Shown here: positions 1,705-25,357 of the stretch, in pieces
Position numbering within the stretch: the stretch's first letter is position 1
Layout: each line of letters starts with the position of its first letter
Virus genome (UHGV): UHGV-0211239
Source of the DNA: a virus
DNA: 41,840 nucleotides
Reading direction: 5' to 3' (one strand)
Notes under the pieces: generated by a model
What the model saw: the letters and a program-made list of their open reading frames with translations, nothing else
What the model was told of the DNA's origin: nothing
Database searches by the model: none
Translations under genes and position numbers: made by a program

Positions 1705-3825
1705 TTACTCCTGTGCCATTCCACTTAGCGATGCCACAATTCCAGCCCTTGCTAAACGCTGGAACTCTTCGTTTCCTAGTGCCTCGCGTATTGCTTTTAC
1801 GGCGGCCTTATTTGCCATAAATCTGCGTTCCGCCGCCGCTAATGCACCATCACTTGCCCCAACCTTAACTGCCTTTGTTGCCTCTTGAACAGCCTTTTCA
1901 ATAGCGTAACGACCGCTTCTAGTTGCGGATAATTTCGCTATCGCTCCTTTTGCCATTGCATCAATTGCTCCACCTGCAGCGCCACCCGCTATTGCTCCAA
2001 TAACGCCTCCTCCAGAGAACCCTGCGATAGTGCCAGTAGTTCTAAAAGCGCCAGACAATGCGCTCTCTAAAACTGGATGAAGGCCATTCTCAAGAGTGCT
2101 AATGGCTGGCATAGATCGCCCTGTCTGTTCAACATATCGAAGTGGCTTTGTTGCTGCTCTTGCAAGTTCTCCGTATGAACTTGTAATCCTGCCAAGTTCT
2201 GGAGAATATCGACTAATTGCCTTCACGTTTTGTGGGGTAAGAATAGTCGCGATATGCTTAATTCCAGCCTCTTCAGACTTACCTCCGCGTACCCCTTGCG
2301 ACATTGCATCTTGTAATATTGATGCAATTGCTGGCGCGCGTTCCGACTCAGGTAGGGCGCTTATTATTTTATGGAACTGACCTGTTCCACTTTTTGCTGA
2401 GCCCTGTAACGCCTTAGAGCCATTATTTACCAACTGATCAGTTGCAAGGTCTCTGCCAAACGCTGCTTCAGCCTGTTCTTGTGCTGTAAATCTTGCCTTT
2501 GACAGGTCATTAGCTTTTTGCCAGTCATCAAGAAAACCGCCATTTTGAGCCATTATGCGCATATCTTCCGTTGCTGCATCACGAAGCTCAGCCATGCGCC
2601 TTGCCGTATTTGCCTCACCAGACCTTATATACTTCTGCTCTGCGTCAGCAAGTTTACTTCGCCATGCCTTCATGGCATCAAACGTGATTCCTTTTTTACC
2701 AGTTTTAGCATAAGCAGATGCGAATTGTTTCATCTCAGGAGTTAGCGGCATGCCAGCCAAAATATCACCCTGAATTGTAGCGTTCAGGTTTGACATTCTG
2801 GCCTTTGCGTCAGGCATCGTGGAGCGGACGCTATCCCATGCGGCCTTTTCTGAATTTTTCATTTTATCAATGCTTGCCAAAACCCTCTGTTTTATGGCTG
2901 CACTTTTTTCTGATGCAGTTCCTGCTTCAGCCCCAAACTCATCCAATGCTGAGTTAAATTTCGACTCTATTTCACTGAATGCTTTGGTGTGTGCATCCTG
3001 TGTAATTCCGGGCTTTGACGCCAGAATCCCCTCCGCCTGAGCAAGACCACGACTACCTGATCTCATGCCAGGAGTTAATGCGTTGATATCTATTCCAGCA
3101 GTATCTGCTGCTTTTGCTATTTCGTCTGACACGTTAGCTGACTGTCTGGCAATAATCTCTCTTCCTGTACCAGACTTTGCCATTTTCGAAACATCATTAG
3201 CAGAATTCAGTGCTGCACCACCAAGAGCCTGTGAAACCCTTGGCGCAATAACGCGCCCGACACCTGAAAGAACGCCTTGAGCACCAATATTGATACCACC
3301 GTTAATGGCAGCATTTTGTGCAAAGTCGCCCTCCTGATTTGCAGCATCAGCAAGAGAACCTGCAATCATGTTTCCTGCGGAACCGATATCTCCAGCGAGC
3401 TTTGCTGGCGCTCCAGCAACTTTTGCCGCTGTGCCAATTGGCAGGAGATACCCACCAATTGTTTCACCGGCTTGCGCGTAAGGGTCTGTCGGTCGATCTA
3501 CTGGACGATAGACATCATCCAAAACCTTGGGGCCACCAAGCCCCTGACTGATTGCATTAATCAGACTTGCGCCACCCTGCAATACGTCAAATGGTATGTT
3601 TACCAGACCACGACCAGCCTGTTCTGCAATTTGCCCTGCACTTTGACCACCAGTGAGCCAGTCAGTAGCTTTTCCCACCAGAGATTGTTCTTCTGGCTGC
3701 GATTGGTTTTGAGTGGATTGATCACCAGAAGACAGCATCTGAGCAATGCGACGTGCTCCCTCAGTATCGCCGGCAGCATCAGCATTCCTTAACGCCGTCA
3801 TCAACTGTTCACGACTATAGGCCAT
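1705..3825 (-). CDS. Ejection (internal/injection) protein, P22 gp16-like
   Basis: 706 aa; last of the gp7-gp20-gp16 triplet downstream of gp14; Ala/Gly-rich low-complexity composition. Confidence 0.8.
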
Positions 3826-5908: not shown

Positions 5909-6367
5909 CTATCTCCCGTGATTCAGGAAGTCGATTAGTTCTTCGCGTGTGGCGCTGTAAAACGTCACGTCATCCACGCCTTTGAAGTATTTCTTGATGG
6001 TTCCTACACGCTTAAGGCCAATCATTGCGCAGTACATCTGCCCGTGGCGGAATTTGCGTGCGGCGAACGATGTGACGCACTGAACGGTGGTGTTAGTCAG
6101 AATGTATCGCCAGAACGCCAGACCGATTTCCTTGCTGAATCCACGAACCTCTGGCAGGTACATGGCGTGGCAATCGAATGTAAGCGGCTGAATCTCCTGA
6201 TAGTAAACAATGCCGCCGAACTGCCCGTGCACGTTCACCTCGAAGTAACGGCATTCAGGCTTGTAGTCGTATCCATCACCGTTGTTGCTCCCGGCGATAA
6301 TGTCGGGGTGATTTCCCACGGCTTCTATCAGGTCGATGTTTCGCGTTGGTTTGAACTGAATCATCAC
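5909..6367 (-). CDS. Head-completion/DNA-stabilisation protein, P22 gp14-like
   Basis: 152 aa ORF between tail needle and gp7; assigned by synteny. Confidence 0.65.
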
Positions 6368-7317
6368 TGCTCCGCGATTATCTTGATGGTTGTGGCAGTA
6401 AACGCCGCACCATTCGACTGAATGGTTAACGTACTGCCATTTGTGGCAAGAAATCCGTCTTTATCCACGCTGAAGAATGTAGCTAACAGGATGTTGTCGG
6501 TTGTTGTCGCCGCATTACGACTGCTGACCAGCGTATCAGGAACAGAGCCGGAAAAAGTTAGCTGCATTGACCTGTTGGCGGTTCCGCTGGGCCACGTCCC
6601 GACGATCGACAGCTTGAAGAACAAGGTTTTGTTCTCGTTGAACACAACCATCTTGTTGTTAACGGTGTCGAAGAATGGTGCCAACGTGCCGGATGACGGC
6701 GTGAGCGTTTTCAGCAGGCTAACAAGGTTGGTAGGCGCTGTCGGAATTGTTACCGATACCCCTGAGTAAACAACCTCTGATTTCTTGCGCGTGGTGGCAT
6801 ACTCAAGCGCAGATATTCTTGTTGAGTGATCACCAACTGTGCTTTGTAGCGTCGAAATACTTCCCTCTGCCGCTGTGAGCCTGGTATCAAGTGCGTCGAT
6901 ATCGGTTGTATTCTGAGTTATGCGCGCATCATGGTTTGCTAACTCAGATTCATTGGCAGCAATTCGCGTCTCGTGATCAGCCAGCTCTGTTTCAGCAGCC
7001 GTAATCCTTGTTTCATGATCTGCAAGAGTGCTTTCCGCTGCTGCAATTCTATGTTCATGATTGATGAGAGTTGCTTCAGCAGCTTCAATTCTGGATTCAT
7101 GGTCTGCAAGGGTGACATCCTGCTCATCGTTCCTGACCTGTGCATCATAAGCGCCCTGTCCGGCCTCGTTGGCTTTGTTAGCCACGTTACCAACATCAGT
7201 GCCCTGTGCGATAACGTAAAGCAGATACGACTGCGAGAAGATATTGCGTGGAAGGACTGATGTGTCGAGCCGTGTGGCCTGAATGATTACCGGAACATTG
7301 AGATTCGAATCCGCCAT
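6364..7317 (-). CDS. Tail needle (P22 gp26-like) with extended coiled coil and C-terminal knob domain
   Basis: 317 aa; N-terminus [43 protein letters not shown] matches gp26 N-terminal domain; heptad repeats (ADHETRI motif several times); about 130-aa C-terminal extension. Confidence 0.8.
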
Positions 7318-8735
7318 TACTCAATCCTTATCTGAGCGCCAGACAGAGTGACAGGTGACTTCGTGATAACGCGCAATTTGAAACCAATGTTTTTCCTGAT
7401 GCGCCCTACTTTCTTCCACAAAACGCGTTTGTCGTAAACGAACGGTTCATTCTGCTCAATCATCTGCTCACGACCGTAATTTATGCCGTCAGTGGTTGCA
7501 GAGAGAAAAAGGCGGTCAGCGTACTGAGCAACACCCGTCGATGATTCCACCTCCAGATCAAAGCATCTGGCGTTATCTGCTTTGAAGAGTGGAGTAAACA
7601 GCAGGTGTTCCTGCTGCTTGTCATACTGGCTGCTGATATCGAACTGCAATTTCCCGGTCACGGATTCCAGCTTATCGCCGCACGTTATCTGATTGCCTTC
7701 GTAAATGAAGTCGATAGCACGGTACACATCGTCATACAAGCCAGTTTTCAACACACACCATTGCGGACCATTGGCGCTTGAAGATGCGTCGTACACGAGA
7801 ACATGGCGCGGAAGGTGGATAATCAGCAACTCATGAGCATCAAATCGCAGCGATTCCATCACACCATCAGCCAGTTCATCAGCAGTGTAGGAGCGGAGGA
7901 TTTTCTCAATGCTCGCGCTGGCGATTGGTGACACCTGACCGGAGCCGATGATGTATACAGACGGCGCACCTGTTGCCGGATTGCTGATGAACGCATACGA
8001 GTCAGCGAATGGCGTTTTGCAGTAAGTCCCGGCGATGCCTTTTTGCACCATCAGTGATGGCTGTGCGACATACAAAGCTGCACCAACGGTGGTTGCACCA
8101 GTCAGGGAGAAATATTCAATCGTCGATGAACCAAAGCAGACGATGAAGTCTCGCCATGTGCCGATGCCGATGATGCCGTCCGGCTGCGATTCTGCGCGAT
8201 ATTGTGCGCTGTAGCGGTCAGGATGCGATTCGTCTTCAAGATCAGTGATAAACCATGAATCAGTTCCGTCTTTTGACCACGCATAACGCCCACGTAAGCG
8301 CGTAATATCGCGGACTGAGCCTAACTCATACTGAGTGAATCCGCTGTCTGTAGGCCAGTTTGAGACGGTTTTAACCGTGCCATCATAGCGATACTCGACC
8401 AGTTGACCATTAACGCCTACCGCCTGTGATGTCCTACCATGCGCCATTGATACGCGACCACTTCCGGAGACGTCACCGACTTCGCTTTCGCCTTTGTAAA
8501 GCTTCCCACCACACACGCGATAAACAGCACTCTGCGCCATGTTGTACTCGACGCCGCGAGATACACCGTTCACATCAGAGCGTTTGGCAATGCCAGGGAA
8601 TGAGCGAAGATATCCCGATGAATTCAACACCTCCTTGGGCGTAGCTAAAAGATTGACTGGAAGTTGGTCTATATAATCAGCATTAACCGCACTTTTCCCT
8701 AATCCCTTCATTAGTGGTAGTTGTTGTATTGCCAT
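7317..8735 (-). CDS. Tail accessory/head-completion protein, P22 gp10-like
   Basis: Start set to ATG at 8735 ([14 protein letters not shown]...); the track start at 8744 is TTG; stop overlaps gp26 start (TAATG). Confidence 0.85.
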
Positions 8736-9267
8736 TGGAATCAACCTTTATATGAACCCAGTTAGCATCACGCTTTAGCCTACTTGCCCAAGTCTTAGAT
8801 ATCCCGTACTTAGCCGCAATTACTGACAAGCTTTCTTTTGATGACTTGATTGCAAGAACATCGTCATCACTCAACTTGTGTTTTGGGTGCTTGGTTCCGA
8901 AAAACTTGATTGGTTTCTTTAATCCTGTGGCGTATGCATGTTTGATGTTTTCGCTTTGAGTGCACCACTCAAGATTATTGACGTTATTATTGAGTGGATT
9001 GCCATCAATATGATTTACCTGAGGCTTGTTTTCAGGATTTGGCAGGAATGTCATTGCAACGATTCGATGGGCAAAAGTCCATTTTGCTCCGATATTATAA
9101 AGCACCCTTCCCTGATTTATTTTAGGCTTTAACCAGCGCCCCTTTCTGAGTTGCGTGCTGCCATGCGCAGCCTTAACAACACGTGAGTGAGAATACACCC
9201 TGCCATCTTCTGTTACGGCATAAACACCTTCAAATCCAGGTATATCTTTAGCATTCTCAGAAAGCAT
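8683..9267 (-). CDS. HNH homing endonuclease (NUMOD4 - HNH - C-terminal HTH)
   Basis: 194 aa; GFEGVYAVTEDGRVYS (NUMOD4-like), HIDGNPLNNNVNNLEW...N (HNH), C-terminal DDDVLAIKSS..LSVIAAKYGISKTWASRLKR (HTH); SD aaggag; 3' end overlaps gp10 start in another frame. Confidence 0.8.
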   Translation of the reverse strand: MLSENAKDIPGFEGVYAVTEDGRVYSHSRVVKAAHGSTQLRKGRWLKPKINQGRVLYNIGAKWTFAHRIVAMTFLPNPENKPQVNHIDGNPLNNNVNNLEWCTQSENIKHAYATGLKKPIKFFGTKHPKHKLSDDDVLAIKSSKESLSVIAAKYGISKTWASRLKRDANWVHIKVDSNGNTTTTTNEGIREKCG

Positions 9268-9303
9268 ATCTACTCCTTAAAGTTTCGATTTTTCATGTAC
9301 TTA

Positions 9304-9408
9304 TTATATCAAAATTGCCAGCATATTCACTGGCAGATAGTCGATATAGTCAGCGTTTCGAAAGTCTTTGCCGACACCTTTCATAAGCGGAAGTTGCTGA
9401 ATCGGCAT
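9304..9408 (-). pseudogene. Duplicated 5' fragment of gene 10 (34 codons then stop)
   Basis: Translates [34 protein letters not shown], paralogous to the intact gp10 N-terminus; ATG abuts the gp4 stop as expected for the native gene 4-10 junction. Confidence 0.7.
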
Positions 9409-9909
9409 TTATTCGCTCCCGTTATCGCAAGGTTCCTTTCGGTGGAAGTAATTCCAACCGTTCCACTTCGCCAACTGATTACCGCTACCAACAGGCATAC
9501 GGTTTGGATAACCGGACTTACATTTAGCGGCTTTTGCTCTGTCCATTGCAGACAGTTTGACGAGTCGCTCTTTCCCGTATCTGGCAGTGGTTATAAGTTT
9601 TGCAGACGCTTCCAGCGCATAATCTGGAGCAATGCGGCAGGCAAGGTTGAAAATGACGGCATTGATAGCGTTATTTGACAAACCGTGCTCATCGCCAGGA
9701 TCCGGAGCGACATCTGCATCAGCGAAAATGTAGCCAACGTTGATACCAGGTGACGCATCACCGCCAAGCCATTCAGCCATCATCATTTCAAGGTCGTTGA
9801 CGCCGTCTTCCATAGACTGCGGTTCGACATCGGTTAACGTGGCATTTGATGCAACACCGAGCTTACGTAATGCTGCAAGGACTAAATCACCCTTCGTTGT
9901 CAGGTTCAT
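9409..9909 (-). CDS. Tail accessory/head-completion protein, P22 gp4-like
   Basis: Start re-set to internal ATG ([33 protein letters not shown]...) giving about 166 aa as in P22 gp4. Confidence 0.8.
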
Positions 9910-10129
9910 CTGCTGCCGCCTTAGGTTTTCGACCAGGCTTTTTACGCTGTTTTTCTTCTGGCTCTGGCTCTGGCTCTGACTCTGCAACATCCTTCAGAAG
10001 GTCATCGGGATGTGCAAACCAGCCAGCATCCAGATATTCCTGAAGCTCTTCGGCTTTCACGATTTCAAAGTCGTATCCAACGCCTTTCCACTTCTTCATG
10101 TCTCCATGACGAAAGATCATGTGTGTCAT
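9887..10129 (-). CDS. Small acidic hypothetical protein between coat and gene 4
   Basis: About 80 aa from ATG at 10129 ([14 protein letters not shown]...), SD ggaga; C-terminus has (EP)n encoded by a hexanucleotide repeat; overlaps gp4 start. Confidence 0.4.
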
Positions 10130-10144
10130 GCTTGTCTCCAGATA

Positions 10145-10166
10145 AAAAAGGGAGCCGAAGCTCCCT
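10145..10166 (-). terminator. Intrinsic terminator/attenuator after coat gene
   Basis: Minus-strand RNA gggagc-uucg-gcuccc followed by UUUUUU, directly after the coat stop. Confidence 0.6.
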
Positions 10167-10173
10167 CTGGTTA

Positions 10174-11469
10174 TCACGCGGTCTGGTTAGGCAGACCAAC
10201 ACCAATTGCCTCTGGTCGTACAGCACATGCTGAATACCACACAGCAATACGGCACTTACCAGACAGAGTATTGATATCACCCTGCGTTGCGAAGATGCCG
10301 TTAACACCAATACCAGGAATGCTGAAGGAAGACGTTTTCATGCCAGCAAACAGTTCATGGGTTACCGGGATCGGCTGAGACAGCAGACGGATTGAGTCAT
10401 CAGCCCAGAACACGTTAGCGGTGGTTGTTGCCACGTTCAGAACGTTTACCGTAGTGGCATCAGCAAGAGAGGTGTTTACGTTAGCGTAAGCCTTCTCTTC
10501 TTTTGTCAGTGACGCGTCATCCAGTGCAATCGGTTTCGGCGTGATTTCGATGTGAGTACCATCGATCACACGGGTGATTGAGAAAGTCGCATCATCAGTC
10601 AGCACGTTCTTCGCCATCTGAGACAGGAATTTCACACCAGTGAAGCTGATTTTGTCGCCGCGCTTAAATCCGGTGGTGGAGGATACGGTCACCGTTGCAA
10701 CACGGTTGTCGACGTTCTCTTTGTTACCATCGGTATCAAGGGTGTATGCCTGCGGCTTAAACTTCTGCGCACCAGAAACAGTTACACCAGTAGCGGTTGA
10801 CTTGGTAACTGCAGGAAGTTTCGGTGAGCGAAGAATTTCATCAAAGCCAGCAATCTGACGCTGAATAGTACCGTTGCGATAAGCTTCTTCAGGAACGCGC
10901 CCAAAGATGTCACCATCTACCAGGTTGCGGCCTGCTTTGCGGTAATCGTCAGGGTTCAGGAAGTAACTGATGCCCATGTCGCGGTTGAGTTCGCGGGAGA
11001 ACATCAGGCGCTCTGCATCAGACACAAAATCCCAGCCAGACAGGCCAGTAGATGGACCAATTGCGCGGGTATCGTGAACAACAAGCGAGCCCATTTCAGT
11101 TGCCTGTTTGGCAATCGCTGACTCAATGTTATTCGCCAGTTTTTTGGCGGATGCCTGGATGCGGCGACGGTAAGAACGCTCATCACGCAGGTCATCTGCA
11201 CGAAGCTCGAAGAAATCGTTATCCGGATCGCCCATGTTGCATTTCACGGACAGTTCCAGAATACCGGTAGCGTTGCCAGTTAAATCCCAGCCAGTCTGAG
11301 TTGGCGCTTCCTGCTCAACAGGCATCCACACGGTGTTGCTTGAACGTTGCATGGATTCTGCCGGAGGGGTGTATTTTGTCACTTTGGACGCCATTGGCGT
11401 CAGGTTCTGGACGGTTTCGATGATTTCATCCAGAGCATACGTGACCAGTTGACCTTCATTTAATGCCAT
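10174..11469 (-). CDS. Major capsid (coat) protein, P22 gp5-like
   Basis: 431 aa; collinear high similarity to P22 coat as recalled (MALNEGQ.VT...[14 protein letters not shown]...NRDMG.SYF.NP.DY.KAG...LSG.CRIA.WY...[13 protein letters not shown]). Confidence 0.95.
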
Positions 11470-12380
11470 TATCGAATTCCTTTATTCAGTTGCGCCTTGA
11501 GCTTGCGGTATGTCTCTACATCCCCTTTGTTTGCTGCCGCTTCCATCTGCTTTTCAATCGCAGATATATTTGCAGCAACAGCGTGTCCCTGAATGGGTTC
11601 ATCAGGTAGCGGGGCTTCTGAAACAGGTTTGGCTCGAGGCTTGAGAGTTAAACGTTCTGACAGTCGAGTGAGTTCAATCAGCGCGGATTGCCCGTCCATC
11701 GCCAGCAACTGGCGTGTTTTCTCAGGATTAGCACCAAGGTGATACATGAGAGCGGCGGATTTCTCCGGGAAGAGGCGCATGATGTCGGCACCGACTGCTG
11801 GCGGCACCAGTTGCATGAATGCATCCTCTTTCTCCTGATAGTCAGGGATATTGAGCTTTTCCGCTGCGTCGTAGTGCTTACGGGCTGCCTCGACGTATTG
11901 CGCTGATTGCTGGGTGAACTCCTGAGTTTTGCGCCCCTGCTCGGCGACAGCCTGGCTTCGTGCGTCCATAGCCTTGATCTGCCATTCACTGTTTGCCTGC
12001 TGGAAGGCAGCCAGTGCGCGGCTCTGGTCATAGTCGTACTTAGCCAGTGCATCTTCGGAAAGATAATCGTTAGGGTCTGGTTGTTTTGGTAACTCAGGGT
12101 TCACCCGCAGGTGCTCCGGCAACTCTCCACGCTTAACCGCCTCCATCTGCTGCTCAAGCTCACGCTGGCGTTTGCGTTCGATGCGGCGACGGGCAAATTC
12201 AGCATTAGTTGCCGGGTCTTGTTTTGGTTTCTCATCGTCTTTCAGGACAATCTCGAAGCCTTCTTCCTGACCTGCGTTGTCGTTGGCATTATCGACAACT
12301 AAGCCATCAGCAGATGCCGCTGCATGATTGCCGGGCAGGGTTAATTCTTCAGAAGCCTGAATGTCGGTGGTTTGGTCCAT
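11469..12380 (-). CDS. Scaffolding protein, P22 gp8-like
   Basis: 303 aa (same as P22 gp8); charged, helix-rich composition; between portal and coat. Confidence 0.85.
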
Positions 12381-12393
12381 GATTAACTCTCTC

Positions 12394-14559
12394 TTATTGA
12401 GGTGTCTCGGCTACTCCGCCGGAGGGGATTTGAACTTGACGCATAAGATTCGCGAAATCCATGCGTTGTGAATGAGTCTGGTCTGCATCTTTAAGAAGCA
12501 GCTCAGCGTTAGCACGAGCATCTTTGCTGCGCTGTTGCTGGAATTGACCTACGAGCTTGAGGTACTCACGCAGTTCTGCCTGCTTGTCGAGGTCCATATT
12601 GTTGAAGATTTCTGCAATCTTCGCGGCGTTGAGTTGGTTTTGGGCTTCAACCTTGGCGGCTTCAACCTGAATCTGCGCCTGTTGGTTCTCTGCCTTGAGC
12701 AATTCAGCCTGACCTTGCAGAAGGATACCCTGAGCCTGAATTTGCTCTGCTGATGGCTGCTGCGGCTGTTGTTGTGCCTGCTGTACCATCTCCATCTCTT
12801 CAGGTGTTTCTGGTTTCTTCAGCCCCATCATCACCAGTTGCTTGTTCGCGTACTCTCGCATCATCTCGACGCCTTTACCGTCAAGCAGCGTGAAGTATTG
12901 CAGCATCAGCATCTGGAACTCTGGAGTACCTTGCGGAACCTTGGTGAGTAACTCCTGAATCTCTGCGCGGTTCTGTTCCTTCATGCTCTGGAAGGATGGC
13001 CCAACGTCCGTATAGCACTCATAGCGACCGCGAATGTCGTTGAGTGTGACCACATTGCCGGACTGGTAATCTACAACTTGCGCATAGAGTTGAACGTCTT
13101 TCTCGCTTCCATCTTCAAGTGTCAGCGTTACATGACGAGGAACGTCATAAATATCGTTGACCATTGAGGCATAAATCTCGCCATCACGTCGCATTGCGGT
13201 AGCAAGGTTATCCTGAAACACGTATGTCTCAAGGTCTGCCCGCATGTTCAGTTGATTGACGGTATCGAAAGCGACCTGACCATTTGCCGCCTGCGCATCC
13301 ACGCCAAGACTAGCCACCTCTTTCACTGCGTTGGTGGCTGCCTCAAGCATGTAAGCGTTGGCTTGCGGCACTTCAGGGTTTTCCATGTAGGAGATTGGAC
13401 CAATCGGCAGGTCGTTGCCGTTTTCATCGGTCTTGTTCTGCAAATAGTACGGATAGTCATCATTTCCACCGTACATGTATTCGTAGCCTTCGATTTGCTC
13501 AGGGAAGAAGGTCGGTTTCTTCTTCGGTGAACGAGCAACAATATCGGCGTTGAATGACATGATCATGTTACGAAGGCGTTGACCGTCTTTCGTCAGCCTT
13601 ACCACTCCTTCGTAGCACTCCTTGTCACCAGCGAATGACCATTCGCCATACACTGGAACGATTGGAATATGCTCTCCGGCTATCTTCTCGCGGTCTTTCA
13701 GTATCTGCGTGCAGGTGATGATCGACTTATACACACGCCGACGCTTGACCTTACGCTCTGCTACCTTAATGAATCCACGATTAGCCAGGTCATCGATGAC
13801 GTCTTTGATATCCTGCTGGTAATAGCTGACCGGCTCACCTGTCAGCGGGTCGCGGTAGATGAAGACTTTCTCCTTCTTCTCTTCTACCTCGTAATACTCA
13901 GCGACGTAGACGACATCATTCGACACCCAAGGAAACAGCCATGTGTCGTTCGGATTCTGGAAAGATGGCAAGGTGTCCGGATCAATACCGTAATCCTCTG
14001 CGAACTCTTTCCAGCCATTGCGTGACAAGGCGTTAATCACCGTGCAGTGCTTAGCGTCGCTCTTATCCATCTGCTTGCTGTTGGCGTCCCATATGACGTG
14101 TGAGCAGGCTTCATGGATTGGCAGGCGTCGGATTACCTGATTGTTGCTTGTTGGGTCGTTGTCTTCGTACTGGGTGACCAGACGCCATGCACCAACGCCG
14201 GACTCTATCTGCTCACGAACGCCAACGTTAACGGCAATCTTTGCCGTGTTATGGCGCATATCAGTACGATACATTCCCATCAACACATCGGCAGCATCAG
14301 GATTAGCGCCGTCTTTGGGTCGGAAGAGAACGTCGATAGGGTTCCGTCGCATCTCTGCTACCAGTTTCCTGACCACCGGGCGAACAACATCGAATTGTCC
14401 GCGATATTGCAGGGTAGTGTAGTTTGATAGCCAGTCATCCCATTGCGACACTCGGCTAAAATACAGGTCATTTGTCGCCTCGGTTCTGGCTTCATCGCTC
14501 GCCATCCAGTCCGCGTCAAACTTACACAGAATGGAATTGAGTCTGTTTTCGTCGGCCAT
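12394..14559 (-). CDS. Portal protein, P22 gp1-like
   Basis: 721 aa; N-terminus [23 protein letters not shown] and long Gln-rich C-terminal helical barrel typical of P22 portal. Confidence 0.9.
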
Positions 14560-24483: not shown

Positions 24484-25357
24484 GAACTTTCAGGTAGGTA
24501 TTGTCGTTAAGCAGGAAATCAAATCCCTTTTTGTGCCAGACGGTTCCGCGTTGATGGTTTGGACGTTCTTCGAACATCCATCGGCAATTTTCGCCTACGT
24601 AGATCAAATAATTTCTCCAGTCCTGCATCGTGAACCCATGCCCGTCAAGCTGGCGGGTTATCACTCCGGCTTTGCGCCAGAACGTTCGGATCTGGTTTTT
24701 ACGCTTGTCATTCAGTGCGCGGATTTTTGGCGCTTCAGGAAGGATTTCGTGGTAAGCATCGACAACATCCTGACAGCTAACGGAAGGTTTTTTCTTGTCA
24801 GACTTTTTGTCTGCTGTGGCACTCTCTAATACGTCAGTATTAGAGATAATATTATTATATTCTTTATCTGTGGTAATTTGCTGGTAATCTGCTGGTACAG
24901 TATTGCTTACAGGCATTGGTATTGCTGGATTTGAGGTGGTAATTTGCTGGTAATCTGCTGGTACAAAATTTGACTGATAATCGTCATATTTCTCTACCGA
25001 GAAAACTGAGAATTTACCGTGTGAAACCCAGTCAATCATGCCGAGTTTTTTGAACTTTCTAAGCAGGTACTGAACGCGATCTGGTTTGAGTCCTGTTTCA
25101 AACGCCAGAGAGTTTCTACCGCCAAGTAGCTTCCCTCTGCCTACCAGAATTTCTCCTGCGTCAGTCATTACATACTCAGGCGTATGCTTTGCTTTGAGGA
25201 TTAAGTGAACCCACAGATGCGCTGCTTCTGCGTCCTTGTAAAACGGCACATCCATAATTTTACGGTGCAGCAAGGCATACCCCTTACCGCTGCTTTGATG
25301 CGGTTGTTGTAGCCTTCTGGCCTCTCTGGCTTCGGCTAGATTAGATATGTTACTCAT
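24458..25357 (-). CDS. Replication initiator (lambda O-like; P22 gene 18 analogue)
   Basis: 299 aa; O-like N-terminal domain; internal duplicated peptide [10 protein letters not shown] encoded by the ori iterons. Confidence 0.85.
24838..24960. repeat. Origin of replication: iterons plus AT-rich stretch inside the O-like gene
   Basis: Two copies of ggtaatttgctggtaatctgctggtaca separated by about 60 bp, adjacent AT-rich tract attagagataatattattatattc. Confidence 0.65.

Follow-up and report, generated by a model that had tools for sequence, protein, structure and literature searches.

A hexanucleotide coding repeat of variable copy number in a small late-operon gene of P22-like Escherichia coli phages

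The hexanucleotide tract that lies just ahead of gene 4 in the P22-like genome studied here is very probably a hypermutable in-frame coding microsatellite, in which gains and losses of whole Glu-Pro units change the length of a spacer in a small gene of the late operon, and not of gp4. The window, by which we mean the whole 41,840-nucleotide stretch of DNA that was analysed, is an E. coli phage or prophage of P22-like (Lederbergvirus) type. Its late morphogenetic operon runs on the minus strand, with the small gene placed after the coat gene and ahead of gene 4 (Table 1), and with gene 4 followed by an HNH endonuclease ORF and then by gene 10. Among sequenced phages, those closest to the window are Louie, HZ41, CurroJimenez_Bas106, Dewey, IME10 and APC_JM3.2, which share 94-97% identity with it over positions 9409-10177. 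A prophage of E. coli TUM9803 is completely identical to the window over 9860-10180 and shows 1 mismatch in ~1550 nt of flank. P22-like prophages with this locus occur in 217 of 5426 complete E. coli genomes.

Table 1. Features of the late operon around the hexanucleotide repeat, in coordinates of the window.
Feature	Position	Strand	Remarks
Portal	12394-14559	-	
Scaffold	11469-12380	-	
P22-type major coat protein gene	10174-11469	-	Pfam PF11651 (P22_CoatProtein), E=8.8e-167; directly 5' of the small ORF in the operon
Terminator-like hairpin	10139-10168	-	GGGAGC-TTCG-GCTCCC plus T run; between coat stop and small ORF start
Small ORF	9887-10129	-	80 aa plus stop; between coat gene and gene 4
N-terminal folded domain of the small protein (residues 1-49)	9983-10129	-	Beta-hairpin and two helices; conserved GW..HP motif
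In-frame upstream extension of the gp4 ORF	9910-9990	-	M-L-(QS)4..., from ATG 9990; not a real part of gp4
Hexanucleotide coding repeat, in reading phase	9959-9982	-	GAGTCA + GAGCCA x3 = E50-S-E-P-E-P-E-P57
Basic tail of the small protein (residues 60-71, from K60)	9917-9952	-	Same DNA holds the gene 4 ribosome-binding region
Gene 4 (head-tail adaptor / P22 tail accessory factor gp4)	9409-9909	-	166 aa; Pfam PF11650 (P22_Tail-4), E=1.7e-58

On the plus strand, the tract consists of three copies of GCTCTG (9961-9978) followed by a single variant, ACTCTG (9979-9984). Tandem Repeats Finder places it at 9957-9984, with a period of 6, 4.7 copies, 95% matches and a score of 49; its perfectly periodic part covers 22 nt (9957-9978), and there is no longer short-period tandem in the window. 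When the window was shuffled so that dinucleotides were preserved, none of 200 shuffles equalled the tract at periods 4 to 9, the self-matching run being 16 in the observed sequence against a maximum of 13 in the shuffles. The window therefore has the at least three perfect head-to-tail copies beyond chance that define a VNTR, and the three perfect units plus one variant reported in a preliminary description of this DNA are real by direct reading of the plus strand, by Tandem Repeats Finder and by the shuffles. That description had placed the repeat at 9958-9984; the right end holds, while the left end falls 3 nt before the first full unit as phased here. In the sense direction the unit is GAGCCA (Glu-Pro). 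Across the tract the small protein reads E-S-(E-P)3 and continues with E-E, since the variant unit, GAGTCA in the frame of the small ORF, encodes Glu-Ser rather than Glu-Pro. The gp4 start codon (9909) follows 50 nt downstream of the tract.

The tract can be read through in two minus-strand frames, that of the 80-aa ORF and that of an upstream extension of gp4. The small ORF begins at ATG 10129, with a GGAG Shine-Dalgarno sequence 6 nt upstream, and stops at 9887-9889. Its product matches phrog_1175 over the full length (E=5.9e-37) and has 346 database homologues, and PGAP annotates an identical ORF in E. coli TUM9803. In the N-terminal part, which lies outside the repeat, variable sites are distributed 6/1/17 over codon positions 1/2/3; the last 72 nt of the ORF contain just 8 variable sites across 90 loci (4/2/2), too few to inform. 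The frame is uninterrupted in 90 of 90 loci checked. Taken together, the family match, codon bias and intact frame lead us to regard the 80-aa ORF as the real gene that carries the repeat, in agreement with the earlier proposal that the tract encodes (EP)n in a small upstream ORF.

Alternatively, the repeat might form an (SQ)n N-terminus of gp4, in which case slippage would make the head-tail adaptor variable at its N-terminus. ATG 9990 does open a frame that is continuous with gp4, and three GenBank records (Louie, Dewey and IME10) annotate the locus in this manner, giving gp4 an (SQ)n N-terminus encoded by the repeat and truncating or omitting the small gene. However, when the long gp4 ORF is aligned with the 166-aa P22 gp4 of solved structures (e.g. 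PDB 8tvu), its Met28 falls on residue 1 of the latter, and position 3 of the Pfam PF11650 model falls at residue 29, so that homology to gp4 starts at Met28 (ATG 9909), downstream of the repeat. Moreover, 8 of the 90 loci have no ATG at 9990 and in 1 other the extension is interrupted by an in-frame stop, whereas the EP frame is open in all of them. An AAGG (9919-9922) lies 9 nt upstream of ATG 9909, whereas an AAGG abuts ATG 9990, which is poor spacing, and a 166-aa gp4 is annotated together with the small gene by PGAP (TUM9803, 501 nt) and in the records of Bas106 and APC_JM3.2. Because gp4 homology begins at Met28 and the frame upstream of it is not conserved, we conclude that gp4 starts at ATG 9909, with the repeat upstream of that start as previously described, and that the final 23 nt of the small ORF are shared with the start of gene 4. 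On the strength of the Pfam start, the alignment to P22 gp4 and the lost start codon or stop in relatives we rejected the (SQ)n extension, and consider a variable gp4 N-terminus highly improbable; the "N-terminal extension" of gp4 in some relatives is an annotation artefact. Assigning the repeat to the small gene resolves the conflict among GenBank annotations of gp4, which sets the records of Louie (L001), Dewey (L004) and IME10 (L005) against three others (L003, L006 and L092). As a separate matter of annotation, PGAP labels the small gene of a 29-unit allele (E. coli ECONIH6) a pseudogene.

The preliminary description had suspected the tract to be slippage-prone and had suggested comparing repeat number across related genomes. 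Far from being invariant, the number of units varies from 2 to 8 among the window and the six closest phages (Bas106 2, window 4, Louie 5, HZ41 5, Dewey 6, IME10 8 and APC_JM3.2 8), between flanks that are nearly invariant. Across 93 related loci it ranges from 1 to 29, and each array is a whole multiple of 6 nt. These 93 loci comprise 80 from IMG/VR along with the window, the close phages and several E. coli prophages; the 80 are those most similar to the query, and the distribution of copy number among them is accordingly not a population estimate. Units are exactly GAGCCA in 506 of 552 cases (92%), and purity extends to the longest arrays, 11 of the 12 with at least 9 units being perfectly pure. 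One long array consists of GAACCA x10, showing that a variant unit has been homogenised. Whole-unit differences in copy number among close relatives, a further property expected of a VNTR, are thus plainly present.

The same range, 1 to 29 units, is obtained from 48 evenly spaced full-length matches in complete E. coli genomes, where copy number was mostly inferred from match length alone and a few matches are off a multiple of 6 by 1 nt. One of these offset matches, in H65 (L094), nonetheless encodes an intact protein with 13 units. Counts verified from the sequence itself are 1 (0H26), 13 (2012C-4431), 19 (NRZ105822) and 29 (ECONIH6). There are also three pairs of loci with 0 mismatches in ~1550 nt of flank, which carry 4 versus 11, 4 versus 3 and 6 versus 5 units. 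Because copy number differs between loci whose flanks are identical, the tract must change faster than nearby sequence acquires point substitutions. Larger duplications happen at this site as well, as is shown by an E. coli homologue of 93 aa (P0001) with a 13-residue tandem duplication just before the EP tract.

How might such alleles arise, and what would they do? Slipped-strand mispairing during replication within the perfect array would create them; unequal recombination within the array is an alternative source, from which the same outcome in unit number would be expected. With a unit divisible by three, slippage can do no more than lengthen or shorten the spacer, and a tract built from 6-nt units cannot turn on or silence either the small gene or gp4. 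A Glu-Pro pair extended as polyproline-II spans ~6 Å per unit. The (EP)n stretch would form an extended, disordered, acidic and proline-rich spacer that leads from a folded N-terminal domain of ~49 residues to a basic tail. The length of this spacer appears to be loosely constrained, so most variation in it is probably near-neutral, neutrality being an assumption on our part, even though an EP-rich spacer is itself conserved throughout the family.

Given its position, one may ask whether the repeat is instead a regulatory switch that acts on gp4 or the small gene via phase variation, mRNA structure or translational coupling. The gp4 start does lie 50-75 nt downstream of the tract, and translation of the small ORF passes through the gp4 ribosome-binding site, the two genes overlapping by 23 nt. 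Yet all 93 of the 93 arrays are multiples of 6, which keeps both the frame and the stop/start overlap constant. We also found no promoter-like site, and the tract falls in neither a promoter nor a Shine-Dalgarno spacer. It therefore has neither of the hallmarks of a contingency locus, that is, a unit not divisible by 3 or a repeat placed in a promoter or Shine-Dalgarno spacer. Finally, a 181-nt segment of mRNA around the repeat folds no better than its shuffles (z=-0.55). We rejected phase variation in view of the 6-nt unit, the whole multiples in all arrays and the small ORF open in all 90 loci checked, and a role in RNA structure in view of the ordinary fold. With no frame shift, no promoter or Shine-Dalgarno site and an unexceptional mRNA fold, an effect on gp4 expression is unlikely, and we attach very little credence to a switch of any of these kinds.

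The 5' end of neuO illustrates what a switch of this sort looks like: its heptanucleotide repeat has a 7-nt unit, slippage shifts the frame, and the gene undergoes on/off phase variation. Whereas the 7-nt unit of NeuO is frame-shifting, the 6-nt unit of the window never costs the frame. In other respects the two are alike, the NeuO poly-psi VNTR of the P22-like E. coli prophage CUS-3 (PMC3046976) being also a slippage-prone coding repeat whose copy number varies between strains.

If the repeat is an in-frame microsatellite of the small gene, it matters what kind of protein that gene encodes. Judged by its sequence and its place in the operon, the window protein is a short form of epsilon34 gene 6 and of orf186 of phages ST64T and L. 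It occupies the same slot, with a P22-type coat gene before it and gene 4 after it, its 3' end running into the start of gene 4, and it has both the homologous N-terminal domain (W..G....GW..HP) and the basic C-terminal tail (KKPG.KPKA) of this family. An alignment with the SEN22 and ST64T proteins, to which it is 38-40% identical, has W14, G16, G36, W37, H40 and P41 as invariant residues and K.RK..G.KPKA as the common basic tail; phrog_3769 is also matched, by the tail only (E=1.9e-08). Long forms have a WDGH domain (PF25311) inserted between the N-terminal domain and the tail, as in ST64T orf186 and in the homologue P0133. The window protein has no Pfam match to this domain, which makes it a short form like that of SEN22, a form with neither WDGH domain nor EP tract. 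Where epsilon34 gene 6 and orf186 have their central WDGH domain, the window protein has the hexanucleotide (EP)n array instead, and Salmonella forms of the family retain only a single "KEP" remnant at that place. Gene 6 is known to vary in length among P22-like phages, its function being unknown (epsilon34 genome paper, PMC2629481), and orf186 is likewise listed as of unknown function in the phage L paper (PMC8022706).

AlphaFold2, run on a shallow alignment of 23 sequences that are at least 93% identical, predicts strands at residues 3-8 and 21-26 and helices at 29-34 and 41-51, with pLDDT of 78-90 over most of the N-terminal domain. For residues 51-80 pLDDT drops to 52-56, consistent with a disordered or extended spacer plus tail. 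Searches with the small protein returned no match in Pfam, NCBIfam or PADLOC and none better than E=0.23 among PDB sequences. Foldseek retrieved only uncharacterised phage proteins from BFVD (best E=2e-3) and nothing below E=7 from the PDB. The tail of the window protein contains KKPGRKPK, which lacks the Arg-Gly-Arg-Pro core with basic flanks of an AT-hook; AT-hook-like motifs, RRGRPPK or KRRGRPS, are found in some homologues (P0132, P0136).

Is the EP spacer peculiar to the close relatives of the window? A search of 1.8 billion cluster representatives yielded only 25 relatives. Among these, most of those that are diverged, at 36-59% identity, have (EP)2-5 or mixtures of DP and EP at the same position before the basic tail. 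Three of these distant homologues, those whose DNA was read, have perfect arrays of their own, CCAGAG x5 (L096), CCAGAG x4 (L097) and GAGCCT x4 (L098), in loci with the same order of coat, small gene, gp4 and gp10 as the window. Long forms with the WDGH domain in E. coli also have GAGCCA next to the tail, 3 units in L095 and 1 in P0133. The tract and the independent hexamer arrays of distant relatives indicate that an EP spacer before the basic tail recurs in the family, where it is repeatedly kept as, or regenerated into, a slippage-prone array. That distant lineages retain (EP)n suggests some selection on the spacer. One of the distant P22-like prophages (L098) has, in addition, an extra ORF of 76 aa at 1268-1498 of its locus, after the terminator hairpin of the coat gene and ahead of the small gene with the EP tract; this ORF has no Pfam match.

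These patterns might be taken further, to argue that spacer length is adaptively tuned, the repeat being a contingency-type VNTR and (EP)n a ruler or tether whose length is favoured by the host or by the capsid/portal background. Adaptive tuning would account for the retention of (EP)n in homologues of only 36-59% identity, where different synonymous hexamers re-encode it, for the very wide range of 1-29 units, and for the array adjoining the tail in both short and WDGH-containing forms. However, SEN22-type homologues and P0130 have no EP tract at all, the P22 counterpart of epsilon34 gene 6 is non-essential (PMC2629481), and very different lengths are found between identical flanks, as drift would give. 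On balance, adaptive tuning seems unlikely to us. A bolder version, to which we would assign a slim chance, would have (EP)n act as a selected "length dial", in which a head- or portal-proximal domain is tethered by a rigid acidic spacer of ~6-180 Å to a basic, AT-hook-like tail that binds nucleic acid. If this were true, slippage would let phage populations retune the spacer distance fast, and the independently homogenised EP hexamer arrays at ~40% protein identity would be a sign of selection for mutability itself.

Other systems resemble this in-frame microsatellite in one respect or another. The proline-rich spacer of TonB has (Glu-Pro)n and then (Lys-Pro)m, extended between domains. As in the window protein, an acidic EP run is succeeded by a basic stretch rich in Pro and Lys, and one homologue (P0140) carries the TonB-spacer-like EPDPEPESKPAAKPKAKAKAKA. 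The likeness is one of composition only: the membrane anchor and C-terminal domain of TonB are absent from the 80-aa window protein, which has no Pfam or NCBIfam match. Hexanucleotide VNTRs are used in MLVA of Enterobacteriaceae, an example being Salmonella STTR6 in prophage Gifsy-1. Such VNTRs share with the window tract their 6-nt units, the location of some of them in prophages, and copy numbers that differ among near-identical strains; the window locus, for its part, is in no typing scheme that we found, and sits in a structural-operon gene of P22-like phages. The tandem repeats of Borgs are likewise perfect, fast-evolving and in-frame, and they form disordered acidic or Pro-rich segments (PMC9879509). 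Borgs differ from the window tract in the elements concerned, in scale and in repeat units, so the parallel is conceptual only.

An in-frame coding microsatellite is an ordinary kind of feature, and that is what the window tract is. A literature search for this particular repeat found no description of it; the GenBank record of APC_JM3.2 marks a repeat_region at the tract, and the corresponding genome announcement is silent on the repeat. The practical value of the locus is modest and current understanding is left unchallenged. It does provide a highly polymorphic marker for P22-like prophages that could aid strain or phage typing, and at the same time it is a source of noise in assembly and variant calling. 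The analysis also draws attention to the gene-6/orf186 family, with its conserved arrangement of folded N-terminal domain, EP spacer and basic tail that overlaps the translation start of gene 4.

Several observations on the surrounding region are worth recording. At the site of the strong terminator-like hairpin that follows the coat stop codon directly and precedes the small ORF (Table 1), relatives (L090, L091, L095-L098) have an equivalent GC hairpin with a T run, distant P22-like prophages included, and the hairpin after the coat gene may serve to attenuate the genes downstream of coat.

The HNH/NUMOD4 endonuclease ORF (8683-9267, minus strand) is inserted at the junction of gp4 and gp10 (region 8683-9408), where the TUM9803 prophage, otherwise near-identical to the window, lacks it. 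The original 5' end of gp10 persists in the window as a remnant of 34 aa (9304-9408, minus strand), and this 5' end occurs a second time, as a diverged copy (ATG 8735) that runs into an intact gp10 of 472 aa (7317-8735), whose start is overlapped by the 3' end of the HNH ORF over 53 nt. The region looks like a homing-endonuclease cassette that brought along or duplicated a cleavage-resistant target. Louie (L001) and Dewey (L004) have no HNH gene at the gp4/gp10 junction; they have a different one, on the opposite strand, between scaffold and coat (locus positions ~3629-3781).

Two other sets of repeats were noticed in the window. At 24866-24897 and 24937-24963 lie two neighbouring arrays with an 11-nt unit (ATCTGCTGGTA / TGGTAATCTGC), of 3.0 and 2.5 copies respectively. 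A 42-nt tandem repeat at 6991-7114 (3.0 copies, 68% matches) is contained in a minus-strand ORF of 317 aa (6364-7317), the TUM9803 counterpart of which is annotated as a tail needle knob protein; the 14-residue periodicity that a 42-nt unit produces would fit the coiled coil of a needle.
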